Source: SAR86 cluster bacterium AG-422-E19 (GTDB taxonomy: Bacteria; Pseudomonadota; Gammaproteobacteria; Magnimaribacterales; AG-339-G14). Taken from it: DNA of 64,000 bases. Below the pieces are notes generated by a model that made no database searches, was not told where the DNA came from, and worked only from the letters and a program-made list of their open reading frames with translations. Positions 33,488-55,003 of the stretch are shown piece after piece (the first letter of the stretch is position 1; every line of letters starts with the position of its first letter). The DNA is taken from the NCBI GenBank assembly GCA_003213595.1, contig QCMR01000002.1, positions 128,015 through 192,014 on the forward strand, in the 5' to 3' direction. The position numbers and the translations under genes were made by a program.

Positions 33488-35518
33488 ATGTTAGATAAAA
33501 AATATTTGTTTAAAAGAAATAACGTATGGTGGGTAAAACTTGCTGTACCTTTATCTTTAAGAAGTGAATTAGGCTATGATTTAAGAAGAACTACTGGCGA
33601 AACAGACTTAGATAAAGCAATTCCTATCAGAGATAAAATCATTGAAGATTTTAAAACTGAATTTCAAATAAGGAAAGTTAATGCAGATGATAAAGGTATC
33701 GTGCTTCGAGGGACTGAGCACATGCAAAAAACTGATATTTCTGATCCACAATATTTTCATAAGGTAGTTGATTGCCAATATGCATGCCCTGCTCATACCA
33801 ATGTTCCCGAATATATTCGTCTAATTGCTCAGAAAAAATATGACGACGCATATATGCTTAACTGGGAATCTAACGTATTTCCAGGAATACTTGGAAGGAC
33901 CTGTGATAGGCCTTGTGAACCTGCATGTCGGAGAGGGAGAACTCACGACAAGCCAGTAGCTATCTGTAGATTAAAAAGAGTCACTTATGATTATAAGAAT
34001 GATATTGATCCTTATCTTCCTGAAATTCCAAAAGTTAAAAATGGTAAAAAAATTGGCCTGATTGGAGCAGGCCCTGCGTCTTTGACAGTGGCAAGAGACT
34101 TATTACCCTTAGGTTATGAAGTTACTATTTTTGAGAAAGATAATAAGCCTGGTGGATTAATGAGAACTAATATTCCTTCTTTTAGGCTTCCAGCGGAAGT
34201 TTTGGACGAAGAGGTTTATAGAATTATCAAAATGGGAGCTGAACTGAAAACCAATTCATATATCGATAGCCTAGAAAATGTTATTGATTCTTTTGATGCT
34301 GTATTTGTTGGCACTGGGGCACCAAAAGGTAAAGATCTTGAAATACCTGGTAGAAAAGAAGCAAGTGAAAATATTCATATTGGTATCGATTGGTTAACTA
34401 GTATTGCTTTTGAGCATACCAAATCAATAGGTAAGAAAGTTATTGTCATTGGCGGTGGAAATACAGCTATGGATTGCTGTAGGACAGCCATTAGGTTGGG
34501 AGCAGACGACGTTAAAGTGACTGTCAGAAGTCCAAAGTCAGACATGAAGGCATCTGATTGGGAGTTAGAAGAAGCAATTGACGAGGGAATTCCTATTCTA
34601 GATAACACTTCTCCAAAAGAATTTTTATTGGATGATGAGGGCAAACTTAAGGGTATGAAGTTTGAAAAAATGGAAGCTCAATATACCGATGGTAAAAGAA
34701 AGTTAATTCCTACGGGCGAAGAAATAATTATTGAATGCGATGACGTGCTTTTAGCAATTGGTCAAGATAATGCCTTTCCATGGATAGAAAAAAATATCGG
34801 AATTGAATTTAATGAATGGGACTGCCCTATTGTTGATAAAACCACAATGCAGTCTTCTCACCCAAAAGTCTTTTTCGGTGGTGATGCTGCCTGGGGTCCT
34901 GAAAACATCATATGGGCTGTAGCGCATGGTCATCAAGCTGCAATTTCCATTGATAATTTTTGTAGTGAGGTTGACTTATTTGATAGGCCTCCACCGCTTA
35001 CAAATTTAGTAAGTCAAAAAATGGGAATTCATGAATGGTCTTATGACAATGGCATTTCTCAAGAAGCTCGTTTAGAAGTTCCTCATGCAGATTTAAAACA
35101 AGCTCTAAGTGATCTTAAAATGGAAGTTGAGCTTGGCTTTGATGAGAAACTCGCGCTCGATGAAGCGCAAAGATGTCTTAATTGCGATATGCAGACAGTT
35201 TTTCAAGAAAAGCTTTGTATAGAGTGTGATGCTTGTGTTGATATTTGTCCGACAGACTGTATTACATTCACTACAAATGATACTGAAGAAAAGGTCAGAG
35301 AAAAACTTAGAGTGCCTGCTTTGAATTTGGATCAAGATCTTTATGTCTCAGAAAAACTAGCTACTGGAAGAATAATGGTTAAAGATGAAGATATGTGCGT
35401 TCATTGTGGACTGTGTGCAGAAAGGTGTCCAACTGGAGCTTGGGACATTCAAAAAAATAATTATATTGAAGCGCATAACTTGAACAAAGATAGAGTTAAA
35501 GCCAAGGAAGTGGCTTAG
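33488..35518 (+). CDS. GltD-like NAD(P)H flavoprotein fused to a C-terminal 2x[4Fe-4S] ferredoxin domain (putative electron-transfer subunit of the adjacent KorAB)
   Basis: N-terminal Fe-S region CPAHTNVP...CDRPCEPACRRG. Two dinucleotide folds (IGLIGAGPASL, VIVIGGGNTAMDCCRTA). C-terminal CLNC...CIECDACVDICP and CVHCGLCAERCP. The first 78 aa are atypical. An internal ATG at 33722 has a GAGG Shine-Dalgarno 8 nt upstream and may be the real start. Confidence 0.8.
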   Translation: MLDKKYLFKRNNVWWVKLAVPLSLRSELGYDLRRTTGETDLDKAIPIRDKIIEDFKTEFQIRKVNADDKGIVLRGTEHMQKTDISDPQYFHKVVDCQYACPAHTNVPEYIRLIAQKKYDDAYMLNWESNVFPGILGRTCDRPCEPACRRGRTHDKPVAICRLKRVTYDYKNDIDPYLPEIPKVKNGKKIGLIGAGPASLTVARDLLPLGYEVTIFEKDNKPGGLMRTNIPSFRLPAEVLDEEVYRIIKMGAELKTNSYIDSLENVIDSFDAVFVGTGAPKGKDLEIPGRKEASENIHIGIDWLTSIAFEHTKSIGKKVIVIGGGNTAMDCCRTAIRLGADDVKVTVRSPKSDMKASDWELEEAIDEGIPILDNTSPKEFLLDDEGKLKGMKFEKMEAQYTDGKRKLIPTGEEIIIECDDVLLAIGQDNAFPWIEKNIGIEFNEWDCPIVDKTTMQSSHPKVFFGGDAAWGPENIIWAVAHGHQAAISIDNFCSEVDLFDRPPPLTNLVSQKMGIHEWSYDNGISQEARLEVPHADLKQALSDLKMEVELGFDEKLALDEAQRCLNCDMQTVFQEKLCIECDACVDICPTDCITFTTNDTEEKVREKLRVPALNLDQDLYVSEKLATGRIMVKDEDMCVHCGLCAERCPTGAWDIQKNNYIEAHNLNKDRVKAKEVA

Positions 35519-37350
35519 TGGAAAATCCTGTAAAAGTAGATCCGATTAATTCTCTTAATGACTTTGTCATTAAATTTGCAAATGTAAATGGAACAGGTTC
35601 TGCAAGTGCTAACCAAATGTTTGCTAAATCTATCTTTAGGATGGGAATACCTATTAGTCCAAAAAATATTTTTCCTTCAAATATCCAAGGTTTGCCTACT
35701 TGGTTTGAAGTCAGAGTAAATAATAAGGGATACTTAGGAAGTAGAGGCGGTGTAGATATTGCTGTTGCTATGAATCCCCAAACTTATTCTCAAGACGTTG
35801 AGGAAATTTTAGAGGGTGGTTACCTTTTATATGATTCTACTTGGAAAAGAAATTTCAATAGGGACGATATCACTATTATCGAAATACCTTTAACGCAACT
35901 TTGTGTAGATTCTTTTACTAACGCCAAACAAAGGGCATTATTTAAAAATATTGCCTATGTAGGAGCATTATCACCTCTTTTGGAAATTGAATATGAAGTT
36001 CTTGAGAAATTAATTTCAGAACAGTTTGTAAACAAGCCTGCGCTTATCGAACCAAATATAAAAGCTTTAAACATAGGAAGAGATTACGTTTTAAAGAATT
36101 TACCTTATCCACTGGGAATTAACGTTAAAAGAGAAGATAAGCTTAAAGATAAAATACTTGTTTCTGGAAATGATGCATGTGGATTAGGAGCGGTCTATGG
36201 AGGAGCTACATTTTGCTCTTGGTATCCAATAACACCATCTACCTCTGTTGCTGAAGGCTTTGAAAAATACGCCTCAAAATATAGGGTTGATCCTCAGACG
36301 GGTAAAAATAACTATATAAGTGTTCAAGCAGAAGATGAATTAGCTGCAGTTGGAATGGCGATAGGTGCAAATTGGAATGGCGCTAGAGGCTTCACTGCAA
36401 CAAGCGGCCCGGGCATCTCCTTAATGAGTGAATTTTTAGGTTTAGCTTATTTTGCTGAAGTACCTCTGGTTATTTTCAACATTCAAAGAGGTGGACCTTC
36501 AACTGGAATGCCAACCAGAACTCAACAATCCGATATCCTTACATGTGCTTATGCTTCACATGGTGACACTAAACATGTACTTTTATTTCCAGAAGATCCT
36601 CAGGAGTGTTTTGAGTTTTCTGCAGAAGCTTTTAATTTAGCAGAAAGATTACAAACTCCTGTATTTGTAATTAGTGATTTAGATATTGGAATGAATGATT
36701 GGGTTACAGATAAATTTGATTGGGATGATGAACAGAAATATGACAGAGGAAAAGTTCTTAAGGCTGAAGATTTAGACAAGATGGATAATTTTGGAAGATA
36801 TTTAGATGTTGATGACGATGGTATTTGCTATAGAACCTATCCTGGAACCCACCCTGAAAAGGGAGCATTCTTTACAAGAGGAACATCTCATGATGAATAT
36901 GCTAGGTACACTGAAAATGGAGATATCAACGAGCAAACTTTAACGAGATTGGTTAAAAAGTTTAGGACTGCGTCTGAATTAGTTCCTGATCCAATTATTA
37001 ATCTTTCCGAAAAACAAGGAAGTTCTGGGGTAATTTTCTATGGAAGTACATCTGCAGCAATGTATGAGGCTAAAGATATTCTCAATGAAAATAACATTGA
37101 GGTAGATCTCATGAGAATTAGATCTTTCCCTTTTAATTTAGATGTATGGGAATTTATTGAAAACCATGACCTTATCTATGTGATTGAACAAAACAGAGAT
37201 AGTCAAATGAGAACCTTGATAATGGCTGAAGGAGGAATTTCAGCAGAAAAACTTAGATCACTAGTGTGGTTCAATGGGGATCCAATTCAGGCTAAATTTA
37301 TTGCTAAGAAAATATATGAAAGAGAATCACAACAGGCATTAATCTCATGA
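35518..37350 (+). CDS. korA: 2-oxoacid:ferredoxin (acceptor) oxidoreductase alpha subunit (KorA-type, fused gamma+alpha domains)
   Basis: 610 aa with a GTG start overlapping the upstream stop by 1 nt (TAGTG). KFANVNGTGSASAN N-terminal domain, then the pyrimidine-binding domain SWYPITPST...ATSGPGISLM. Confidence 0.88.
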   Translation: MENPVKVDPINSLNDFVIKFANVNGTGSASANQMFAKSIFRMGIPISPKNIFPSNIQGLPTWFEVRVNNKGYLGSRGGVDIAVAMNPQTYSQDVEEILEGGYLLYDSTWKRNFNRDDITIIEIPLTQLCVDSFTNAKQRALFKNIAYVGALSPLLEIEYEVLEKLISEQFVNKPALIEPNIKALNIGRDYVLKNLPYPLGINVKREDKLKDKILVSGNDACGLGAVYGGATFCSWYPITPSTSVAEGFEKYASKYRVDPQTGKNNYISVQAEDELAAVGMAIGANWNGARGFTATSGPGISLMSEFLGLAYFAEVPLVIFNIQRGGPSTGMPTRTQQSDILTCAYASHGDTKHVLLFPEDPQECFEFSAEAFNLAERLQTPVFVISDLDIGMNDWVTDKFDWDDEQKYDRGKVLKAEDLDKMDNFGRYLDVDDDGICYRTYPGTHPEKGAFFTRGTSHDEYARYTENGDINEQTLTRLVKKFRTASELVPDPIINLSEKQGSSGVIFYGSTSAAMYEAKDILNENNIEVDLMRIRSFPFNLDVWEFIENHDLIYVIEQNRDSQMRTLIMAEGGISAEKLRSLVWFNGDPIQAKFIAKKIYERESQQALIS

Positions 37351-38399
37351 GTTACTTTAAACCAATAAATAAACACCCCAATTTAGAAAAAAATAAGTTA
37401 GGTCTCACTAGAAGAGATTATGAAGGTGGCGTTTCTACGCTATGTGCTGGATGTGGCCATGATTCAATAAGCGCTTGCATCATTGAAGCCTGTTTTAGGT
37501 TAAATATAGAAGCATACAAAGTAGCTAAATTGTCTGGAATTGGATGTTCTTCAAAAGCTCCTGCATACTTTTTAAACGCCTCTCATGGATTTAATTCTGT
37601 TCATGGAAGGATGCCTTCTATAGCAACAGGAGCAAATTGCGCTAATGAGGATTTACTATATTTAGGCGTATCAGGAGATGGAGATAGTGCTTCAATTGGT
37701 ATAGGTCAATTTATTCATGCAATAAGGAGGCAAGTGAACATGGTATATTTCGTTGAAAATAATGGAACATATGGTTTAACGAAAGGACAATTTTCCGCAA
37801 CAAATGACCTTGAATCTAAAAATAAATATGGAGAAGATAATTTATTCCCGCCAATTGATCTTACTTCAATGGCAATTCAGATGGGAGCATCATATGTAGC
37901 TAGAAGCTTTTCAGGAGATAGGGATCAGTTAGTTCCTTTAATTATGGGGGCAATTCAACACAAAGGTTTTGCGCTCTTGGATATTATTAGTCCTTGTGTG
38001 ACCTTTAATAATCATGATTCTTCAACTAAAAGTTACGATTACATTCGAAATCACAATGAAGCTATGGGCAAAACAGATTTTGTTCCCCTAGGAGAGGAAA
38101 TTAAGACTAATTATGATGACGGTTCGAGTGTAGAAGTAAAGCTTCATGATGGTTCAAGACTTTCATTAGAAAAAACAGATCATAATTTTGATCCCACGGA
38201 TGCTGGGAAATCTTTGGAGTTAATTAGGGAAAAAAATAAAGAAGGAAAAATTATCACCGGATTGCTTTATGTAGACAATAAATGCAAGCCTTTAACTGAA
38301 ATAATGGACTTGCCTGATAAACCACTTAACACTTTAGAACAGGATGAACTTTGTCCTGGCAGCGAGATATTGGAAGAAATTAATAAAGGTTTAAGTTAA
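37347..38399 (+). CDS. korB: 2-oxoacid:ferredoxin oxidoreductase beta subunit (KorB-type, TPP-binding)
   Basis: 350 aa. CAGCGHD cluster ligands and the TPP motif GDGDSASIG...(x)...VENNGTYGLTKGQ. ATGA overlap with korA. Confidence 0.9.
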   Translation: MSYFKPINKHPNLEKNKLGLTRRDYEGGVSTLCAGCGHDSISACIIEACFRLNIEAYKVAKLSGIGCSSKAPAYFLNASHGFNSVHGRMPSIATGANCANEDLLYLGVSGDGDSASIGIGQFIHAIRRQVNMVYFVENNGTYGLTKGQFSATNDLESKNKYGEDNLFPPIDLTSMAIQMGASYVARSFSGDRDQLVPLIMGAIQHKGFALLDIISPCVTFNNHDSSTKSYDYIRNHNEAMGKTDFVPLGEEIKTNYDDGSSVEVKLHDGSRLSLEKTDHNFDPTDAGKSLELIREKNKEGKIITGLLYVDNKCKPLTEIMDLPDKPLNTLEQDELCPGSEILEEINKGLS

Positions 38400-44733: not shown

Positions 44734-44809
44734 TGGTGGGTCGTATAGGATTCGAACCTATGACCAATTGATTAAAAGCCAACTGCTCTACCAACTGAGC
44801 TAACGACCC
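44734..44809 (-). tRNA. tRNA-Lys (anticodon UUU), CCA encoded
   Basis: Minus strand reads GGGTCGTTAGCTCAGTTGGTAGAGCAGTTGGCTTTTAATCAATTGGTCATAGGTTCGAATCCTATACGACCCACCA. It folds as a 7/4/5/5 cloverleaf with anticodon loop CTTTTAA, and is near-identical to E. coli tRNA-Lys as I recall it. Confidence 0.96.
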
Positions 44810-44829: not shown

Positions 44830-45531
44830 TCATTGAGAATTTAATTTAATTAAATCTTGTTCTGCAAGTAAAGCAGCTCCAGAGTTTGGATAATTACTTA
44901 TAACTTCTTGTAAGAGTGTCTCAGCTGATTCCAATTCTTCTAAATTAACTTTGGCAAGAGCAAGTTTGTACAGGCCGTCTGCTGATCTAGGATGATCATC
45001 AAACTTTGCTACGAAGGCATTCAAAACTTCAGAGGAATCTTCAAACATTTCTTGGACTAAATATATTTCACCAAGCCAAAAATAAGCATCGCCTGTATAG
45101 GTTCCGTTTGGATAAGATAGAATCAAGAGTCTCAAGTTTTCTGCTGCTTCTGAATATCTAGAATTATCAAGCAGCTTCATAGAATTTGACCAAAGGCCAA
45201 ATTCTCCTGTGTCGATATCTTCTTCTACAAGACCCGACAAAGGATTTATAGACTGTTCTGAAGATTCTTCGGCTTGTGTTTCTTCAAATAATAACTTTGT
45301 CTCTAAAAGATGAATTCTTTTATCTAGATCAACGTATCTAATTTGGTTTGCTTCTTCCAACCTGGAAATGGTTAAGTTATTTGTTTCTATTGAGGCCGTA
45401 AGAGATTCTATTTCTTTTTTTAAAAGATTTATTTTTTCAAGAAGAAGTTCTATGGATTCATTATTTTGCAAAACTGCAAAACTAGAAAAACCCAAAAAAA
45501 CAAAAAAGAGAAAGCTTTTTAGAATTTTCAA
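44830..45531 (-). CDS. cpoB: Tol-Pal system protein CpoB (YbgF)
   Basis: Signal peptide, N-terminal coiled coil, C-terminal TPR repeats. Immediately downstream of pal. Confidence 0.8.
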   Translation of the reverse strand: MKILKSFLFFVFLGFSSFAVLQNNESIELLLEKINLLKKEIESLTASIETNNLTISRLEEANQIRYVDLDKRIHLLETKLLFEETQAEESSEQSINPLSGLVEEDIDTGEFGLWSNSMKLLDNSRYSEAAENLRLLILSYPNGTYTGDAYFWLGEIYLVQEMFEDSSEVLNAFVAKFDDHPRSADGLYKLALAKVNLEELESAETLLQEVISNYPNSGAALLAEQDLIKLNSQ

Positions 45532-45532
45532 T

Positions 45533-46036
45533 CTAGTAAAGAGAGATTTCTACCCTTCTATTTTCAGCCCAAGCTTTTTCGTTAGATGCGCTTTTAAGGG
45601 GTTTTTCTTCACCAAAACTAACTACCCTAATTTTTTTACCAGACACTCCTTTTACTACAAGAAAGTCTCTCACCTCAAGCGCTCTTCTTTCCCCAAGTGC
45701 TAAGTTATATTCTCTAGTTCCTCTTTCGTCACAATGGCCTTCTAATCGAACTATTTTTGCCTTTTTGATCTCAGGTAAATACTGCTCAAGTAAGTTTTTG
45801 TCTTCCGCATCCAAAGCAGATTTATCAAAGTCAAAATAAACTTTGTCATCTAGATTGGTTTCAAGCTTATCTCCTTGAAGATACTCTTCTCCAGCTACAG
45901 AGGCATATTGCATTCGCTCAACTGAATCAGACACATTCGCTGCACAAGAATAAACTTGGCAAAGCATAGCTAAAATAAAAATTCCAATTGGTTCCATAAA
46001 TAGTCTCCTCATAAAAAGCTCCTTAGAGGGCTGCAA
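45533..46036 (-). CDS. pal: Peptidoglycan-associated lipoprotein Pal
   Basis: Lipobox-like (VYSC) N-terminus and an OmpA-like domain, LEGHCDERGTREYNLALGERRA. Confidence 0.92.
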   Translation of the reverse strand: MQPSKELFMRRLFMEPIGIFILAMLCQVYSCAANVSDSVERMQYASVAGEEYLQGDKLETNLDDKVYFDFDKSALDAEDKNLLEQYLPEIKKAKIVRLEGHCDERGTREYNLALGERRALEVRDFLVVKGVSGKKIRVVSFGEEKPLKSASNEKAWAENRRVEISLY

Positions 46037-46081: not shown

Positions 46082-47365
46082 TTAATTTAATAATGGTGAC
46101 CAAGCTGGTTCCCTTACAGATCCATTTTTAACTGGTAATGAGAATCTAGCTTTTCCATCTAAGGTAATACCTCCTAAATAACCATTTGATCCATCTTTTG
46201 TTGCATAGATGATGATATTTCCATTTGGAGAAATAGTTGGTGATTCATCTAATGAAGTTGAAGTTAAAGTCTCAATGTATCTACTAGAGAGTTTTTTTAT
46301 TGCAATTTGAAAATTTCCATTATTTCCATGAACAAAGAATATAGATTTTCCGTCGGGAAAATATCTTCCTCTAGCATTGTAATTTCCATCTCTAGTAAGT
46401 CTTTTTTTTCTTTTAGATTTTGTACTGATTTCGTAAAGCTGCGGAGAACCAGATCTATCAGACGTAAAAATAATTTTTTTTGAATCTGGGGACCAGGAAG
46501 GCTCAGTATCAATACCATAATGATTTGTAAGCCTTACCAATCTTTTGTTTCTGATGGAATATAAGAAAATGTCTGGATTCCCTGAAAAAGAAACAACCAA
46601 AGCTAGGCTTTTTCCGTCTGGAGACCATACTGGAGCACTATTTGTCATTCCTAGAGCCTGAATAGAATCTCGTTCTCCAGATTGTAAGTCCTGAATAAAA
46701 ATTTCAGCCAAACCATTTTCAAATGATACGTAAGCAATTTTTTTTCTATCAGGAGACCAATCAGGAGACATTATTGGCGCTTTAGAGGTAAAAAGAATTT
46801 GTTCATTTTTGCCATCGATATCTGAAATGCACATTTGATAAGTATCGGCGTCTGAATTAATAACATATGCCAGTTTCGTATCAAATATTCCTCTCAAACC
46901 TGTGATTTGTTCATAGATTCTATTACTGATAATTTTTGAGATATCCTCGATATTATCTTCACTGCCAACGATTTCGCCTTCTAAAATCTTAATTCTTCTA
47001 TTTATATTGAATAAAGAATACGAAATATTAAGATTTCCTAAAGCGTTAACAGAATTTACTTTTCCAATTACAGAATAATCCACTCCGAGCACTTTCCAAT
47101 CCCTATAATAAAAATCATTTTCCGAGGATGGATAAGAAAGCATTTCATTCACAGCTAGATTTTCAAATTCGCCAAATAAAAGCATATTCTTTTCAATATT
47201 TTTAGATATCTGACTGCCATAATTTTCTTCAATACCGCTCTCATTGCCAAAGGGAACAAACGCAACTTTTGATAAATTATCACTGCCCTTTAAGATCTCT
47301 ATTTCTAAAATAGAAAAAATAGTGTTTGAAACTAAAATAAATAATATAGACAAAAACCTAATCAC
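46082..47365 (-). CDS. tolB: Tol-Pal system beta-propeller protein TolB
   Basis: 427 aa. Repeated WSPDG/SPDxKKI blades and an N-terminal TolB domain. Confidence 0.96.
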   Translation of the reverse strand: MIRFLSILFILVSNTIFSILEIEILKGSDNLSKVAFVPFGNESGIEENYGSQISKNIEKNMLLFGEFENLAVNEMLSYPSSENDFYYRDWKVLGVDYSVIGKVNSVNALGNLNISYSLFNINRRIKILEGEIVGSEDNIEDISKIISNRIYEQITGLRGIFDTKLAYVINSDADTYQMCISDIDGKNEQILFTSKAPIMSPDWSPDRKKIAYVSFENGLAEIFIQDLQSGERDSIQALGMTNSAPVWSPDGKSLALVVSFSGNPDIFLYSIRNKRLVRLTNHYGIDTEPSWSPDSKKIIFTSDRSGSPQLYEISTKSKRKKRLTRDGNYNARGRYFPDGKSIFFVHGNNGNFQIAIKKLSSRYIETLTSTSLDESPTISPNGNIIIYATKDGSNGYLGGITLDGKARFSLPVKNGSVREPAWSPLLN

Positions 47366-47988
47366 TCTATCTCACCAGATGATTTAAAAACTAAATTAAA
47401 ATTTCTAAAATTTTTTTCAAAAAGTTTTCTCTCAAGGGATAAAACTTCTTCAAAAAAAGTCATTTTATTCATAGCAGTCAAAATTGATTCATTGAAAGAA
47501 GTATTTGAACTTGGCTCTATTAAGCTAAAATTTAATATCTCACCAGAAGGGGCAAGGTTAATTAAAACCTTTGCAATCAATGATTCGCTTAAAGAATTTG
47601 GCTTTATCCAAATTGAGGAAATTCTTTGTTGGATAATTGCCGAAACTCTTAAGATATCTTCCCTCTCCTTCGAAAGTTTAATTTTAGTAATTTCATTTTT
47701 TATATCTAATTTATTTATTTTGAATTTTGAAATAATTGAAGTTTCATCAGCGTTTGTTTTTTCATTAATAGCAGAGGTTTTTTTTGCTTCTTTTTTAATT
47801 AAGGTATTTGCCGCAGGAGGATCGAATAATATGTCATTTTGTTGAATTAATTCATAAAAATTTACTTTGATTGATTGTGTCTCATCAATATTGAGTTTTG
47901 GGAAAGAAAACATAGAAAAAATCAAAGATAAAAATAAAAGAATCAAAAAAAAAGTATTTAAACTTGTTAAAACCTTATTCATTCTCAA
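47362..47988 (-). CDS. tolA: TolA-like protein (short form)
   Basis: 208 aa with one N-terminal TM helix, a Lys/Glu-rich linker and a small C-terminal domain. Called mainly from its position between tolR and tolB. Confidence 0.6.
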   Translation of the reverse strand: MRMNKVLTSLNTFFLILLFLSLIFSMFSFPKLNIDETQSIKVNFYELIQQNDILFDPPAANTLIKKEAKKTSAINEKTNADETSIISKFKINKLDIKNEITKIKLSKEREDILRVSAIIQQRISSIWIKPNSLSESLIAKVLINLAPSGEILNFSLIEPSSNTSFNESILTAMNKMTFFEEVLSLERKLFEKNFRNFNLVFKSSGEIE

Positions 47989-48406
47989 TGGGTTCAGTTA
48001 TGAGATTGATTGAATCTGTTTTAAATTTTTTGATCAAAGACATTGTTCTTACAACGTTGTCATAAAGCGTTTCCTTATCTGCTCTCAGAAATATCTCAAC
48101 TTTTGGATTATTTTTTAAAATTTTTTCAAACTGTTCAGCAAATGACTGAAAACTTTTGTAAATTTCATTTTTTTCACCTAAATCAAAAGAGTAAAAACCC
48201 TCTTTGCTGATTGAAATAGTTAGATTTTCTTCTTTGGATTTATTTAGAGCTTGTGCTTCGGTTTTTGGCAAATCTAGATCAATTCCTTGAATCATAAATG
48301 GTGTTGCAACCATAAAGATAACCAGCAAAACTAATGAGATATCCACATATGGAATAACGTTAATTTCTGTTAAAAGTTTTCTATTTTTTAGTCGTCTTTT
48401 GGACAT
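47975..48406 (-). CDS. tolR: Tol-Pal system protein TolR (ExbD family)
   Basis: 143 aa. INVIPYVDISLVLLVIFM TM segment with the conserved Asp. Confidence 0.88.
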   Translation of the reverse strand: MSKRRLKNRKLLTEINVIPYVDISLVLLVIFMVATPFMIQGIDLDLPKTEAQALNKSKEENLTISISKEGFYSFDLGEKNEIYKSFQSFAEQFEKILKNNPKVEIFLRADKETLYDNVVRTMSLIKKFKTDSINLITEPIENE

Positions 48407-49052
48407 TGAGTTCTTGGTAAGTTATTAAAAGTTCAGATGTAAAGTTTTCGTAACTTTTAATAATAATATCAATTGTCTTAACACTCCAATTATAAGAAAT
48501 AAGAGCAGGAATAGCTGCAAAGAGACCCAAGGCAGTAGCTACCAGAGCTTCAGATATTCCTGGAGCAACAGCATTTATTGATACTTGAGAAAGTTGTGCC
48601 AAACCGCTAAAAGCATTCATAACTCCCCAGACAGTTCCAAATAGGCCTATAAATGGGCTTACAGACGCTACAGTAGACAGGAGAGATAAACCTTCTTCCA
48701 ATCGTTCTTCTTGCCTGTTTATTATTATTTCCGTTGACTTATTGATGCGGTCTTCAGCTTTTTCAAACTTTTCTGCCTTTAAAAATTCTTCATGAGAAAT
48801 AACAAAAATTTGAGATAGCCCAAAATTATCTTCTTTACGATTGAGTTCATTAAAAATTTTTTCAATATTTTTAGAATCCCAGAAATCGGTTTCAAATTCA
48901 TAAATATCCTTTCTTGCTCTGCTTAAGGTGAGCCATTTATCAAAAATAAACCACCAGGAAGTTCCAGCTAAAATAAACAAAATAATCATCACCAGTTGAA
49001 CAACTAAACTTGCTCCTAAAAATAAATCTATAAAACTTAATTCAGCTTGCAT
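48381..49052 (-). CDS. tolQ: Tol-Pal system protein TolQ (MotA/ExbB family)
   Basis: 223 aa with 3 TM helices and the conserved PFIGLFGTVWG...ALVATALGL region. Confidence 0.92.
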   Translation of the reverse strand: MQAELSFIDLFLGASLVVQLVMIILFILAGTSWWFIFDKWLTLSRARKDIYEFETDFWDSKNIEKIFNELNRKEDNFGLSQIFVISHEEFLKAEKFEKAEDRINKSTEIIINRQEERLEEGLSLLSTVASVSPFIGLFGTVWGVMNAFSGLAQLSQVSINAVAPGISEALVATALGLFAAIPALISYNWSVKTIDIIIKSYENFTSELLITYQELNVQKTTKK

Positions 49053-49449
49053 TTTTTTTATCCAACATCCTTTTTCTTAGATCCTCTGGGAGAGCAGTGG
49101 GTTTTTTGGTTTTAAGATCAACACAGCCGCATAATACATTAGCTTCACACATTATTTCTGAATTTATAACAACTCTTTGTTTAAAACTAAAACTAGCTTT
49201 CTTTAATTCCGAAAGAGAAGATTCTATTTTTATTAATTGATCTAACAGGACAGGTTTTTTGTAATGAATGTCTAATTTATTGACTATGAAAATAGTATTT
49301 TTGGCTAATAGTTCCTTTTGCAGGTAACCACACTTTCTTAGAAATTCAGTTCTAGCCCTTTCAAAATATTTAAGATAATTAGCGTAAAAAACTACACCTT
49401 GTGCATCTGTATCTTCATAGTAAATTCTTAGCTCTAAGGTATCTGACAT
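49042..49449 (-). CDS. ybgC: Tol-Pal-associated acyl-CoA thioesterase YbgC (4HBT fold)
   Basis: 135 aa. IYYEDTDAQGVVFYANYLKYFERART hot-dog motif. Upstream of tolQ. Confidence 0.88.
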   Translation of the reverse strand: MSDTLELRIYYEDTDAQGVVFYANYLKYFERARTEFLRKCGYLQKELLAKNTIFIVNKLDIHYKKPVLLDQLIKIESSLSELKKASFSFKQRVVINSEIMCEANVLCGCVDLKTKKPTALPEDLRKRMLDKKNAS

Positions 49450-49856
49450 TAAAGATGGCTTTTTATATCTTCTTCAAAGAGAGATTTAAGTAAAACTATG
49501 AAGCTCTCTAAAGAAAAATCACACGTATTATTAAAATTTTTAGGAAGATTATCGTTCACAGTATGGAGTGGAACTCTCACCTTGATAGGTCTGTGATTGA
49601 ATTTATAGATCAAAGCTGGATTACTGCCTTCTGGAGTTGCAGCAATCACTTGATCCCACCAGCCTTCAAGAGGTTCTGCGCCTTGCCCATATCGTTTGCA
49701 TTCTATGTACCAATTACCAAGGATAAGATCCGGAAGATGTTTTTCTCGAGTTTGTTCTAATATTCTTTTTAAAGGTTTTTTTAATTCCAGAGAATCGTTC
49801 AAAGCATTTGCAATTTCTCTTTCAAATGATGCTCCCTTATTTCTAGAATTCGTCAT
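49449..49856 (-). CDS. Uncharacterised PD-(D/E)XK nuclease-fold protein, Hjc / T7 endonuclease I-like (candidate junction resolvase)
   Basis: 135 aa. N-terminal NKGASFEREIANAL, then HLPDLILGNWYIECKR (PD...E.K). The spacing and order are like archaeal Hjc (KG..AERE ... VDLVAG ... IEVK) and T7 endo I (TPDFLLPNG..VETK) as I recall them. TAATG overlaps join it to both yebC and ybgC. The family assignment comes from motifs only. Confidence 0.5.
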   Translation of the reverse strand: MTNSRNKGASFEREIANALNDSLELKKPLKRILEQTREKHLPDLILGNWYIECKRYGQGAEPLEGWWDQVIAATPEGSNPALIYKFNHRPIKVRVPLHTVNDNLPKNFNNTCDFSLESFIVLLKSLFEEDIKSHL

Positions 49857-50590
49857 TAAGCAAAGCTCCCTTCAGAAAATTCAGCATTGGAATGAACATT
49901 TTGCACATCATCCAGATCTTCAAGACTTTCCAAAAGATTGATGACTTTTTCAGAAGCCTCATCATCAAGCTCAACGCTATTTGATGCTTTCATAATCAAC
50001 TCGTATTGGTTGATTTTGATTTCATTCTCTTCTAGAACATTTTTAAGATTATGAAATTCTTCGGCTTCAACAGAGATGATGAGATTATCTTCGTCACCCT
50101 GTTCTACTTCATCTGCACCATTGGATACAGAAACATCAAATATTTTTTCCTCATCAGTATTTTCAACGACTATCTGGCCAACTTTGGTAAATAAATATGC
50201 TACAGATCCATCAGTACCTAAACTTCCTCCGTATTTGGAAAAAGCATGTCTAACTTCAGCAACTGTTCTGTTTTTATTGTCAGTCAAAGTTTCAACTATA
50301 ATGGCAACCCCATTAGGGCCATAGCCTTCATAAATTGTTTCTTCTAAATTTTCTGCTTCCTGATCTCCAGAACCTCTTGCTATTGCTCTTTCAATTGTAT
50401 CTTTTGGCATATTGGCCCCAAGGGCTTTATCTAGAGCTAGTCTTAATCTTGGATTATCTCCAGGTTCAGGTCCTCCTAATTTTGCAGCAACGGTAAGCTC
50501 TCTTATAAGTTTCGAGAAAACTTTTTGTCTTTTTTCATCTTGACGACCTTTGCGATGTTTTATGTTGGCCCACTTAGAATGTCCCGCCAC
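49856..50590 (-). CDS. yebC: YebC/PmpR-family transcriptional regulator/translation factor
   Basis: 244 aa with a GTG start. (M)AGHSKWANIKHRKG...NPRLR signature. Confidence 0.96.
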   Translation of the reverse strand: MAGHSKWANIKHRKGRQDEKRQKVFSKLIRELTVAAKLGGPEPGDNPRLRLALDKALGANMPKDTIERAIARGSGDQEAENLEETIYEGYGPNGVAIIVETLTDNKNRTVAEVRHAFSKYGGSLGTDGSVAYLFTKVGQIVVENTDEEKIFDVSVSNGADEVEQGDEDNLIISVEAEEFHNLKNVLEENEIKINQYELIMKASNSVELDDEASEKVINLLESLEDLDDVQNVHSNAEFSEGSFA

Positions 50591-52353
50591 TATTTATCCT
50601 CTTCAAGAACTTTTATGGAAAGCATATCTAATTGATCTTGATCAATTAAACTTGGAGCATCAGAAAGCAAGCAAGTTGCTGATTGGGTCTTTGGAAAAGC
50701 AATTACATCTCTGATAGATTCTTGTTTACAAACCAACATGATCAAACGATCTAATCCAAAAGCAATTCCGCCATGAGGAGGACATCCATAGGACAAAGCT
50801 TCTAAAAAGAAACCAAATTTTTCATCCGCTTCTTTTTTATCTATTCCTAAAATTGATAATACTTCCAATTGTTCATCTAAATTGTTAATTCTCAAAGAAC
50901 CGCCTCCAATTTCACTGCCATTCAAAATAAGGTCATATGCTTTTGCAACAGCATTTACTGGATCTTTCTTTAGTTCTTTGAGCCCTCCTTTAGTAGCAGT
51001 AAAAGGATGGTGTGATGGAGATAAGTTCCCTTGAATATCCTCTTCAAATAAAGGAAAGTCTGTTATCCATCCGAATTTAAAAGCCTCTTTATCAATTAAG
51101 TTAAGATCTTCACCTAATTTTTCTCTCAATGAGCCCATTGAATCATTCACAACATTTCTGTGATCGGCACCAAAAAAAACAGTGTCTCCAGAACTTAGTT
51201 CAAGCCTTTCAACTAAACTAGAAATCTCTTCTTTAGAAAGGAACTTAAGAATTGGAGACTGAAGCCCATTATCTAGATCACTAGAATCATTGACTTTTAT
51301 ATAAGCTAGTCCTTTTGCTCCAAAATTACCGACAAATTTAGTGTACTCATCTATTTTATTTCTGCTTATTTCTTGTTCAATTTTAAGCGCAACAATTCTT
51401 GCTTTTTCATTCTTGGCAGGATCGGCAAAAACCTTAAATGAAGAGTTTTCAAAAATATCTTTTACATCAACAAGCTTTAAAGGGTTTCTTAAGTCAGGTT
51501 TATCTGAGCCGTAATCCTTTATTGCTTCTTGATATTTAATTCTTTGGAAATCATCAAACTCAATATTTAAAGTTTCAAAAAAAATTCTTTTAATAAGGCT
51601 TTCAGAGATCTTAAGAATTTCTTCTTCTGAAATAAAAGACAATTCGATATCCAATTGAGTAAATTCTGGCTGCCTATCTTTTCGTGTATCCTCATCCCGA
51701 AAGCATCTGACAATTTGAAAATATTTTTCAAAACCTCCAATCATCAACATTTGTTTGAAAAGCTGTGGTGACTGAGTCAGGGCATAAAACTTTTGATTGT
51801 AAAGTCTGCTTGGGACAAGAAAATCTCTAGCTCCTTCCGGAGTAGCCCTAGCCATCATTGGAGTTTCAATTTCAATAAACTCATCTTCAATGAGATGACT
51901 TCTGACGATGTGATTTACTTGCGATCTGATTTTCAGATTTGATTGCATTTCCGGTCTTCGCAAATCCAAGTAACGGTATTTGAGTCTAACCTCTTCACCG
52001 ACTTTTGCATGTTCATCTAACTGAAAAGGCAAAGGTTTACTCTTGGAAAGAATATCAATTTCTTTTGAAACAAGTTCCAGTTCTCCAGACGCCAATGACT
52101 CATTAATTGTGCCTTTAGGCCTTTTTCTAAGAATTCCTGTAACTTCAAGAACATAAGACATTCTTATCGATTCCGACTTTTTGAATAACTCTTTATCGTC
52201 TGGCTCAACAACAACTTGCATTAATCCTGATGCGTCTCTGATATCTAAAAATATGACACCTCCATGATCCCTGACCTTTTCAACCCATCCAGAAATAAGA
52301 AAGGATAAATCGATTTCTTTATTAGAAATATTTTTTATTTGAGTACGTTCCAT
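50590..52353 (-). CDS. aspS: Aspartyl-tRNA synthetase (bacterial type with GAD insertion)
   Basis: 587 aa. OB-fold N-terminus and class II motifs (CFRDEDTRKDRQPEFTQLD, GGIAFGLDRL). Confidence 0.98.
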   Translation of the reverse strand: MERTQIKNISNKEIDLSFLISGWVEKVRDHGGVIFLDIRDASGLMQVVVEPDDKELFKKSESIRMSYVLEVTGILRKRPKGTINESLASGELELVSKEIDILSKSKPLPFQLDEHAKVGEEVRLKYRYLDLRRPEMQSNLKIRSQVNHIVRSHLIEDEFIEIETPMMARATPEGARDFLVPSRLYNQKFYALTQSPQLFKQMLMIGGFEKYFQIVRCFRDEDTRKDRQPEFTQLDIELSFISEEEILKISESLIKRIFFETLNIEFDDFQRIKYQEAIKDYGSDKPDLRNPLKLVDVKDIFENSSFKVFADPAKNEKARIVALKIEQEISRNKIDEYTKFVGNFGAKGLAYIKVNDSSDLDNGLQSPILKFLSKEEISSLVERLELSSGDTVFFGADHRNVVNDSMGSLREKLGEDLNLIDKEAFKFGWITDFPLFEEDIQGNLSPSHHPFTATKGGLKELKKDPVNAVAKAYDLILNGSEIGGGSLRINNLDEQLEVLSILGIDKKEADEKFGFFLEALSYGCPPHGGIAFGLDRLIMLVCKQESIRDVIAFPKTQSATCLLSDAPSLIDQDQLDMLSIKVLEEDK

Positions 52354-52368
52354 ATTTCGAAAGATTGT

Positions 52369-52650
52369 TTAATCTTTTTTAGCAGGTTTTGAGTTTTCTG
52401 TTTTTTTTGGTTCCTTAGAAAGTTTTTTACTTTTTATATCTGATTGTACAAGATTTTTTTTATTGCCTGTCTTAAAGTCTGTTTCGTACCAACCTGATCC
52501 TTCTAAACGAAAGGATGTGGCTGAGATAATTTTTTTAGCCTTTGCTTTTGGCGAGCAATCACAAAATACAGTTTTTGTAGAATCTGCTACAGAAACAATT
52601 CTTTCAAATATTTTGTCGCATTTACTGCATTGGTACTCATAAATAGGCAT
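52369..52650 (-). CDS. FmdB/CxxC_CxxC_SSSS-family zinc-ribbon protein
   Basis: MPIYEYQCSKCDKIFE...CDCS, followed by a Lys-rich tail. Confidence 0.75.
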   Translation of the reverse strand: MPIYEYQCSKCDKIFERIVSVADSTKTVFCDCSPKAKAKKIISATSFRLEGSGWYETDFKTGNKKNLVQSDIKSKKLSKEPKKTENSKPAKKD

Positions 52651-52720: not shown

Positions 52721-53998
52721 ATGAAAGCTTCCTCATTTCACTATAAAACTCAAAAAGAAGCCCCAAAAGACGCAGAACTCATAAGCCATAAACTTATGAT
52801 CAGAACAAATATGATAAAACCGTTGGCTTCTGGTATTTATTCGTGGATGCCCCTGGGATTAAAGATTCTTAATAAAGTCGAATCTATCATTAGAAGAAAT
52901 ATGAATGAATATGGTTGTTTAGAAGTTTTAATGCCGATGGTTCAACCAAAAACACTGTGGGACGAAACAAAACGGTCTGAGCAAATGGGTCCAGAACTTT
53001 TGGGTTTTTTGGATCGTAATGAAAGGGAATTTTATCTCGGACCTACTCATGAAGAAGTCATTACCGATATATGTCGTCATGAACTGCAAAGTCATAAAGA
53101 TCTGCCTAAAACTTTTTATCAAATACAAACGAAATTCAGAGATGAAATTAGACCTAGATTCGGAGTCATGCGAGGCAGAGAGTTTTTAATGAAAGATGCC
53201 TATTCATTTGATCTTGATGAAGAAGGGATGAGCAAAAGCTATCAAGCTATGAAAGAGTGTTACCAAAAGATATTTGACGAGATTGGCTTTGATTATAAGA
53301 TTGTAAAAGCTGATTCAGGAGCAATTGGTGGGAATATGTCTGAAGAATTTCATGTCTTAGCTGATTCTGGTGAAGATACATTGGTATTTAATGATAAAGA
53401 TTTTTCATCAAATATTGAATTATTGGAAGATTCCTTGAAAAAGGAAATTGAGAAAAAAATTGAAAATAATGATCTATCTGATATTGATAGTGAGCATGGC
53501 AAACTTTCAATTAAAAAAGGAATTGAGGTAGGCCATATATTTGAACTAGGTAATAAATACAGCAAATCTATGGGTTTAAGTGTCCAACATGATAATAGTC
53601 AAAAGATTTTAGAAATGGGCTGTTATGGAATTGGAGTTTCTAGAATTGTTGCAGCTGCTATAGAGCAAAATCATGATAATGAAGGTATTGTTTTTCCAAA
53701 AAATATTTCTGCTTTTGATTGTTCTTTAATTTCAATCAATGAAAAGAAATCAGAGATAGTTAAAAACAAAGCTAAGGAAATATACTCATATTTAATGAGT
53801 AACAATGTAGATGTCTTCTATGATGATAGAGATGCATCTCCAGGTAATAAATTTTCTGATTCCAATTTAATGGGGAATCCTTATCAGATAGTTATTAGCG
53901 AAAAGAACGTTGAAAAAGGCTTAATCGAAATAATTAATAGAAAAGATCAGACAAAATCTGAAATAACTGAAAAAGACTTATTGGGTCTCTTTGATTGA
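52721..53998 (+). CDS. proS: Prolyl-tRNA synthetase, bacterial-type core lacking the INS editing domain
   Basis: 425 aa. Motif 2 [25 protein letters not shown] and motif 3 [17 protein letters not shown]. Only about 28 aa (53423..53506) lie between ...SNIELLE and ...[14 protein letters not shown], where E. coli ProRS carries about 180 aa of INS. Confidence 0.9.
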
Positions 53999-55003
53999 GT
54001 CTGTAATCTGTTTTTCTATTTTCTTAGCTATATTTGGGTTGTCTTTTAGCCACTGACTAGCATTAATTTTACCTTGGCCAATTTTTTCACCATCGTAAGC
54101 GTACCAAGCACCTGCCTTCTCAACGATTTTTCTCTCAACTCCAATATCGAGAATTTCTCCAGCACGGTTAATCCCTTTGTTGTAAAGAATTTGAAATTCA
54201 GCTTGTCTGAATGGAGGTGAAACTTTATTTTTAACAACCTTAACTCTAGTTTCATTTCCTGCGACTTCGTCGCCGTCTTTAACTGTACCAATTCTTCTAA
54301 TATCCAATCTCACAGAAGAATAAAACTTTAAAGCATTACCACCAGAGGTAGTCTCAGGACTGCCAAACATTACACCGATTTTCATTCGAATTTGATTAAT
54401 AAATATAACAAGAGTATTTGATTTTTTTATACTGCCGGTTATTTTTCTTAGTGCCTGTGACATAAGTCTAGCTTGAAGGCCAACATGATGATCCCCCATT
54501 TCGCCCTCAATTTCGGCTCGGGGTACTAATGCGGCTACAGAATCAATAACTAAAACATCTATTCCACCAGATTTAACCATTATGTCGGCAACTTCCAGGG
54601 CTTGTTCGCCTGTATCAGGCTGAGAAAGGAGCAAGTCATCTATTTTTACTCCAATTTTTTCTGCATAGATTGGATCTAAAGCATGCTCTGCATCTATAAA
54701 TGCCGCGGTTCCTCCTTGTTTCTGGCACTCGGCTATAACTTGCAAAGTCAAAGTTGTTTTTCCTGAAGATTCGGGACCAAAAATCTCAACTACTCTGCCC
54801 TTAGGCAAGCCCATTATGCCAAGTGCCAAATCCAATCCTAATGAGCCTGTAGAAATACTTGGAATACTCTGAACCTCCCTTTCTCCCATCCTCATGATGG
54901 TTCCAGGACCAAATTGGGTCTCAATCTGAGAGATGGCTGTTTCTAGGGATTTTCCTTTTTCTGGTAACGCTGTATCGTCTTTTTTTGTTTTTCTTGTAGG
55001 CAT
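53978..55003 (-). CDS. recA: Recombinase RecA
   Basis: 341 aa. Walker [10 protein letters not shown], and the L1/L2 loop regions (..[28 protein letters not shown]). Confidence 0.98.

Follow-up and report, generated by a model that had tools for sequence, protein, structure and literature searches.

A phage-type, Hjc-like nuclease gene in the ruvC-ruvA-ruvB slot of SAR86 bacteria as a candidate replacement for RuvABC

Enzymes that resolve Holliday junctions differ in what they recognise. RuvC and RusA cut preferred sequences and so rely on a motor (RuvAB or RecG) that moves the junction; Hjc-type enzymes and phage debranching enzymes recognise structure, with little or no sequence preference. 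RusA, a resolvase found in lambdoid phages and in cryptic prophages, is sequence-selective and RecG-dependent; in Escherichia coli, where it is a silent prophage gene, it is able to suppress ruv mutations. RecU of the Firmicutes and Mollicutes is a PD-(D/E)XK resolvase that has displaced RuvC non-orthologously in a whole lineage; RuvAB is kept in these bacteria and recU is unlinked to ruvAB (PMC3403352). RuvA and RuvB are absent in <2% of bacteria, and most of these are parasites whose genomes are reduced (PMC3403352). Here we analyse a stretch of 64,000 nucleotides (nt) from the SAR86 cluster bacterium AG-422-E19 (GenBank assembly GCA_003213595.1, contig QCMR01000002.1, positions 128,015 to 192,014 of the forward strand; hereafter the window), in which one 408-nt gene (hereafter X) lies between yebC and ybgC, where ruvC, ruvA and ruvB would be expected.

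Our results suggest that X is probably a domesticated phage nuclease that serves SAR86 as its junction-resolving enzyme in place of RuvABC. The locus, the predicted fold and a published marker table support this displacement, which an earlier note on this DNA had proposed in the form of an archaeal- or phage-type resolvase; cleavage of junctions is the part that we infer. The stronger claim, namely that SAR86 resolves all junctions with one phage-derived Hjc-like enzyme and no dedicated branch-migration motor (no RuvAB, perhaps no RecG), is more tentative, and we lean somewhat against it. The case differs from the RecU and RusA precedents in that (i) the whole resolvasome, motor included, appears to be lost, with the candidate replacement at the same locus; and (ii) the replacement is a core gene of a free-living, extremely abundant lineage and comes from a donor family for which no characterised member was found. 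Whereas the RecU lineages retain RuvAB and carry recU elsewhere, all three Ruv proteins seem to be gone from SAR86 and X stands within the ruvCAB slot itself. The gene and its putative active site are placed as follows.

49449-49856, minus strand: gene X, 408 nt with an ATG start, 135 amino acids (aa); putative Holliday-junction resolvase of family PF24608 with a predicted Hjc-like fold
49695-49823, minus strand: catalytic core codons of X (E12 at 49823-49821, D43 at 49730-49728, E52 at 49703-49701 and K54 at 49697-49695)

Translation gives a product that begins with MTNSRNKGASFEREIANAL and carries NKGASFEREIANAL at residues 6-19 and HLPDLILGNWYIECKR at residues 40-55, which bears out the 408-nt open reading frame (ORF) and the motifs quoted for it in the earlier note. 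Direct reading agrees with the 1-nt stop/start overlaps described there for both neighbours: position 49856 serves both as the A of the X ATG and as the final base of the yebC TAA stop, and position 49449 both as the first base of the ybgC start codon (an A) and as the final base of the X TAA stop, so that each junction reads TAATG. X is a real gene, well beyond a chance ORF, because its protein has 673 homologues at E<=1e-3 in the protein database (from marine metagenomes nearly throughout), 52 of its 135 positions are invariant among 81 sequences (one from each of 80 SAR86 species genomes and one from the window) and its median ratio of nonsynonymous to synonymous substitution rates (dN/dS) is 0.10. 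The corresponding values at the same loci are 0.14 for YebC, 0.25 for YbgC and 0.19 for TolQ (medians of pairwise Nei-Gojobori estimates). The GC content across X (0.30-0.37) is the same as that of the flanks, and the locus holds no further phage genes near it. This native composition, together with the single SAR86 clade described below, led us to reject a recent insertion and is consistent with the integral operon member that the earlier note took X to be.

X belongs to the Pfam family PF24608 (PDDEXK_15, "phage putative PDDEXK endonuclease"), which it matches over residues 3-107 (38.0 bits, with the gathering threshold at 27; E=2e-9), and all listed homologues carry the same family. It also belongs to phrog_244 of the PHROGs collection ("RusA-like Holliday junction resolvase", E=1.9e-13), and several SAR86 orthologues are named 'Holliday junction resolvase' in IMG. 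A search of NCBIfam and a phmmer search of the PDB returned nothing, and the Pfam RecU and RusA models were not matched in hmmscan. The 'RusA-like' label was rejected as a statement about fold, since the model of X is PD-(D/E)XK and Hjc-like and Pfam RusA is unmatched. The same label of phrog_244 is spreading into phage genome annotations (e.g. Pseudomonas phage Baskent_P4_1).

The putative tetrad E12, D43, E52 and K54 is invariant in all 81 SAR86 sequences. In a broader family alignment (60 sequences, 26-87% identity), K7, G8, E12, R31, Q35, E52, K54 and P80 are invariant, and R5, R13, L33, W66, W67 and Q69 are nearly so; the E/D/ExK residues singled out in the earlier note are therefore kept among homologues, all four within SAR86 and E12, E52 and K54 family-wide. 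Their spacing is close to that of the catalytic centre of Sulfolobus Hjc (E12, D42, E55 and K57; PMC6555300).

An AlphaFold2 model built from the 60-sequence alignment (mean predicted local distance difference test score, pLDDT, 90.9; predicted template modelling score, pTM, 0.87) is confident and shows a PD-(D/E)XK core, in which helix 4-23 bears E12 and strands 44-46 and 49-56, bearing D43 and E52/K54, are followed by helix 66-72 and strand 79-86. On this model X is a member of the PD-(D/E)XK nuclease superfamily, and the motif and modelled core agree with the nuclease core and upstream acidic helix recognised in the earlier note. When the model was compared with the PDB by Foldseek, the top 15 matches were all archaeal Hjc or Hje (probability 0.95-1.0; template modelling score, TM, 0.44-0.60), from A. 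fulgidus (2wcw/2wiw), S. tokodaii (2eo0), S. solfataricus (1ob8) and P. furiosus (1gef). The family profile, searched against PDB sequences, found P. furiosus Hjc as its best match, marginally (E=0.024), and hhalign aligned the family with residues 3-90 of P. furiosus Hjc at 91.4% probability, pairing E12/R13/R31/E52/K54 of X with E9/R10/R25/E46/K48. Structure, profile and alignment thus all lead to Hjc/Hje and place X in no non-resolvase family. The earlier note had likened X to both Hjc and T7 endonuclease I; the first likeness stands, and the second finds no support past a shared superfamily, as T7 endonuclease I is absent from the top 50 Foldseek matches in the PDB. A likeness to RecU was likewise discarded, with no RecU chain among those 50 matches and no match in Pfam. 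Among predicted viral structures (BFVD), uncharacterised phage proteins match best, at TM up to 0.84, and the named matches are a phage "Holliday junction resolvase", an "HJC-DNA complex" and RecU/PrfA (PrfA one, weak).

The archaeal enzymes (PDB 1gef, 1hh1, 1ob8, 2wcw and 2eo0) resemble X in size (~120-140 aa), in the PD-(D/E)XK core, in an N-terminal KGxxxERE helix that bears the first glutamate and in a tetrad of the same residues at nearly equal spacing. X differs from them in being bacterial or phage-borne rather than archaeal, in forming a separate family by sequence and in its own set of family-specific conserved residues (R31, Q35, W66, W67, Q69 and P80). In its proposed mode of action X would resemble T7 endonuclease I and T4 endonuclease VII, which are small, structure-specific and largely sequence-independent and resolve junctions with no help from RuvAB, although T4 endonuclease VII has a different fold. 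RusA resembles X in being phage-derived and able to stand in for RuvABC, but its fold is unrelated.

All relatives outside SAR86 whose context was examined are at most 53% identical to X and lie in phages or prophages. A 48-51%-identical relative adjoins genes for a DUF3799 PD-(D/E)XK exonuclease and a VapE primase; 40%-identical relatives occur in temperate marine phages with an integrase, YqaJ exonuclease, Sak annealase, primase-helicase and terminase; and a 30%-identical relative adjoins a DnaB-type helicase gene in a prophage. GenBank phages matched by tblastn include Roseobacter, Vibrio and Pseudomonas phages, of which Roseobacter phages CRP-406, CRP-701 and CRP-811 carry relatives labelled 'putative PDDEXK endonuclease'. 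A scan of IMG/VR gave 141 viral relatives, again none above 53% identity. Among 60 neighbouring proteins sampled from 16 non-redundant viral loci, the commonest domains are those of primase-helicases (AAA_25, 7; Toprim_2, 4; Toprim_3, 4), followed or accompanied by the DUF3799 exonuclease (5), VapE (2) and YqaJ (2); DNA methylases, a small terminase, AAA_24 and DUF669 also occur. These phage PDDEXK_15/phrog_244 proteins share with X the Pfam family, the motifs and 30-53% identity, and differ in being sited in phage or prophage replication-recombination modules, whereas X is chromosomal. In marine temperate phages a second small, likewise uncharacterised nuclease-family gene, PF24579 (PDDEXK_14), recurs one or two genes after PDDEXK_15, ~250 nt downstream, and the phages with this pair also carry the YqaJ exonuclease, Sak annealase and primase-helicase.

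The SAR86 X proteins form one clade (bootstrap 186/200) when 75 sequences are joined in a neighbour-joining tree, and the nearest outgroup to this clade is a viral contig. The simplest history, judged from these sequences, would be that X was captured once, long ago, from a phage and has been inherited vertically ever since.

We then compared the surroundings of X with the ruv locus of other bacteria. The genes around X in the window, with recA and the end of the cluster, are as follows; aspS, tolR, the tolA-like gene, tolB, pal, ybgF and recA are named through the Pfam labels of syntenic SAR86 loci.

53978-55003, minus strand: recA (ORF translation; RecA_N/RecA_C labels on the syntenic gene)
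50590-52353, minus strand: aspS, aspartyl-tRNA synthetase (from the ORF list; tRNA-synt_2 and GAD Pfam labels in syntenic loci), with a 1-nt overlap with yebC
49856-50590, minus strand: yebC (TACO1/YebC family; PF20772 and PF01709), directly upstream of X
49042-49449, minus strand: ybgC-type 4HBT acyl-CoA thioesterase (Pfam 4HBT_2 and 4HBT), first gene of the tol-pal cluster, downstream of X
48381-49052, minus strand: tolQ (Pfam MotA_ExbB)
47975-48406, minus strand: tolR (ExbD label in syntenic loci)
47362-47988, minus strand: tolA-like gene (TonB_2 label in syntenic loci)
46082-47365, minus strand: tolB (Pfam label in syntenic loci)
45533-46036, minus strand: pal (OmpA label in syntenic loci)
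44830-45531, minus strand: ybgF/cpoB (YfiO/TPR label in syntenic loci)
44734-44809, minus strand: tRNA-Lys (anticodon ttt; ARAGORN), end of the cluster

Pfam matches, syntenic loci and ARAGORN together reproduce the order aspS-yebC-X-ybgC-tolQ-tolR-tolA-tolB-pal-ybgF-tRNA-Lys given in the earlier note. That ruvC-ruvA-ruvB normally fill the place of X had been argued there from Pseudomonas and many other gammaproteobacteria; the contiguous Pseudomonas order (PA0963-PA0974) we take as an assumption. The claim finds support in E. coli K-12, where the order is aspS-nudB-yebC-ruvC-yebB-ruvA-ruvB, and in STRING, where YebC, YbgC, TolB, TolQ and TolR rank highest among the genomic partners of RuvA, RuvB and RuvC (PMC3403352).

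The arrangement is general in SAR86. When one genome was taken for each GTDB species and scanned with an alignment narrower than the 60-sequence one, relatives of X turned up in 147 genomes, of which the best 80 are all from the SAR86 cluster. By tblastn, AspS-YebC-X-YbgC-TolQ-TolR-TolB occur in this order in 80/80 of these SAR86 loci and are incomplete only at contig ends (AspS was recovered in 77 of the 80, the remaining three being shorter loci that end before aspS). The yebC-X and X-ybgC spacings very rarely fall outside -4 to +6 nt. YebC-X-YbgC is also found in 69%-identical single-cell genomes and in a deeper, 55%-identical relative, so that X sits in the former ruvCAB slot well beyond the window. 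The closed chromosome of isolate HIMB1674 (CP151794.1) carries X at the same locus with 63% identity, and the closest match to the X of the window (98% identity) is on the metagenome-assembled genome (MAG) contig JAYQJB010000002.1. With a single copy at a fixed core locus in all SAR86 genomes examined, X is a conserved core gene of SAR86. A contig deposited as 'MAG: Thaumarchaeota archaeon isolate SAT137' (PAWD01000035.1) shows the same AspS-YebC-X-YbgC-Tol order with an X 63% identical to ours, and is almost certainly a SAR86 contig mis-binned in a public MAG.

These distributions bear on three other explanations. If X were a decaying or selfish phage remnant without host function, or no real gene, its relatives outside SAR86 would fit as phage genes; the presence of a relative in 147 species-level genomes, the common locus in all 80 inspected, the invariant residues, the low dN/dS, the single clade, the native composition and the want of phage genes nearby effectively refute this. 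A domesticated phage nuclease used in defence or exclusion, restriction-like and only incidentally next to yebC, is very unlikely. The family is phage-borne, PD-(D/E)XK is the classic restriction-enzyme fold and the restriction enzyme 3ndh is among the weak PDB matches of the model, yet 3ndh scores far below Hjc in Foldseek, PADLOC defence models gave 0 families matched by X at E<=1, no methylase or partner gene is present, and a single-copy, fixed core locus under strong purifying selection is unlike variable defence islands. YebC/TACO1 proteins are linked to translation, and the tight yebC-X junction conserved across SAR86 could mean that X acts with YebC on RNA or ribosomes, not DNA. This we hold to be at least as improbable as a defence role: the coupling of X to yebC is more simply inherited from ruvC because the yebC-ruvC linkage is ancestral and widespread, the relatives with known context are all in phage DNA replication-recombination modules, and the fold matches DNA junction resolvases.

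The absence of RuvABC throughout the lineage is taken from the literature. In the available part of Table S1 of Ramfelt et al. 2024 (PMC11582366), the markers PF01330 (RuvA_N), PF07499 (RuvA_C), PF05491 (RuvB_C) and PF02075 (RuvC) are missing from the closed genome of HIMB1674, and the same four score 0 in almost all genome columns. Of the 28 markers missing from HIMB1674, 27 are systematically absent across 732 environmental SAR86 genomes (PMC11582366). As far as that part of the table goes, the closed genome holds no intact ruvCAB elsewhere, in keeping with the displacement suggested in the earlier note. Locally, tblastn with E. coli RuvA, RuvB and RuvC gave no match at E<=1e-5 in the 80 SAR86 loci or the 64-kb window. 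The available part of Table S1 also lists RadA, RecN, MutS domains (I, II and IV) and Rep helicase markers as missing in SAR86, and RecF, RecO, RecR and YqgF/RuvX (PF03652) markers as present (PMC11582366). Taken together, the SAR86 marker losses look as if recombination and mismatch repair had been thinned out in a coordinated way.

Several points weigh against X as the enzyme that replaced RuvABC. PD-(D/E)XK folds serve many functions, and the likeness to Hjc is at the level of fold or superfamily only (TM ~0.5, 15-23% identity): X does not match the Pfam Hjc model at E<=1 in hmmscan, and hhalign sets D43 of X two columns off D33 of P. furiosus Hjc. The literature yielded no biochemically characterised member of PF24608. 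The absence of RuvABC comes from a published marker-gene table (HIMB1674 and 732 SAR86 genomes) rather than from a genome search of our own, and the missing RadA, RecN, MutS and Rep may mean that recombination is reduced and the role of X narrower.

The main rival is that X is a structure-specific nuclease whose main substrates are stalled or reversed forks, flaps or D-loops, with junctions avoided or dissolved otherwise (by a helicase-topoisomerase pair or YqgF). A recombination toolkit without RuvABC, RadA, RecN, MutS and Rep, as far as the available part of the marker table shows, would suit such a nuclease, as would a similarity to Hjc confined to the fold and the YqgF/RuvX marker retained in the same part of the table. 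YqgF is now seen mainly as an rRNA-processing nuclease. Against this rival, the best structure and profile matches of X are all bona fide junction resolvases, its phage relatives lie in replication-recombination modules beside exonucleases and annealases of recombination, a setting that would suit a debranching role, and X has taken the position of ruvC together with its coupling to yebC. We regard a fork or flap nuclease as unlikely, though it is the most credible of the alternatives, and continue to prefer a junction-resolving role in place of RuvABC.

Such a role could have arisen and could operate as follows. An ancestor of SAR86 (Magnimaribacterales) would have gained X once, from a phage replication-recombination module, and X would have been fixed between yebC and ybgC while RuvA, RuvB and RuvC disappeared. 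Through translational coupling to yebC, X would inherit the expression context of ruvC, and one 408-nt gene would replace ~2.1 kb of ruvC, ruvA and ruvB coding sequence in a streamlined genome. By analogy with Hjc, the protein is probably a homodimer that would bind the four-way junctions made by RecA and place paired nicks across the branch point. RecA (in the window) and RecFOR (by the published markers) are retained. X may work without RuvAB because Hjc-type enzymes show hardly any preference for sequence, if any at all. That X dimerises, cleaves junctions, does so independently of sequence and suffices without a branch-migration motor is what we infer. A helicase scan of the ten largest ORFs of the window returned housekeeping enzymes only.

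Parts of this picture were already known: phrog_244 and the IMG labels hint at the function, and the absence of RuvABC has been published, as missing markers only. The new element is the link between that absence and the candidate replacement X, and we found no paper that joins the two. Literature searches on SAR86 with Holliday junctions, on PDDEXK_15/PF24608 and on Hjc-like proteins in bacteria turned up no earlier description. Dupont et al. 2012 do not mention ruv or repair genes, and the main text of Ramfelt et al. 2024 contains neither 'Holliday' nor 'resolvase' and names no replacement for RuvABC (PMC11582366).

The implications are several. SAR86 is free-living, globally abundant and culturable (HIMB1674), whereas the known bacteria without RuvAB are mostly reduced parasites (PMC3403352). 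The candidate X would explain how recombinational repair persists in SAR86, and such repair could persist with X because RecA and RecFOR are retained. After RecU and RusA, it would be a third route for replacing RuvC, here with the branch-migration motor lost too, and it would be the first cellular role proposed for the uncharacterised phage family PF24608. X also offers a system in which one can test directly whether RuvAB becomes dispensable when the resolvase is structure-specific and sequence-independent. Should X prove to be the sole, motor-free resolvase, SAR86 would be a natural demonstration that a free-living bacterium can dispense with RuvABC and rely on a recruited phage debranching enzyme as its only core resolvase. 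For genome surveys, the standard gammaproteobacterial completeness markers would mislead for SAR86, and for a biological reason.

Other features of the window deserve mention. From aspS through yebC, X, ybgC, tolQ, tolR and the tolA-like gene to tolB (46082-52353, minus strand), the reading frames overlap throughout, by 1, 1, 1, 11, 26, 14 and 4 nt in turn. Because these overlaps are unbroken, the ~6.3 kb from aspS to tolB appears to be one translationally coupled unit, in which the resolvase candidate would be linked to a tRNA synthetase on one side and to the Tol-Pal division machinery on the other. Directly upstream of aspS (52369-52650, minus strand) lies a gene for a 93-aa Zn-ribbon protein with a lysine-rich tail (PF09723, Zn_ribbon_8, in syntenic loci), whose position is kept in four SAR86 relatives. 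Farther away, three co-directional genes (33488-38399, plus strand) encode a pyridine-nucleotide-disulphide oxidoreductase with Fe-S domains, a POR/POR_N protein and a thiamine pyrophosphate (TPP)-binding subunit; the trio resembles a 2-oxoacid:ferredoxin oxidoreductase-type module, which is notable for an aerobic heterotroph of the surface ocean.

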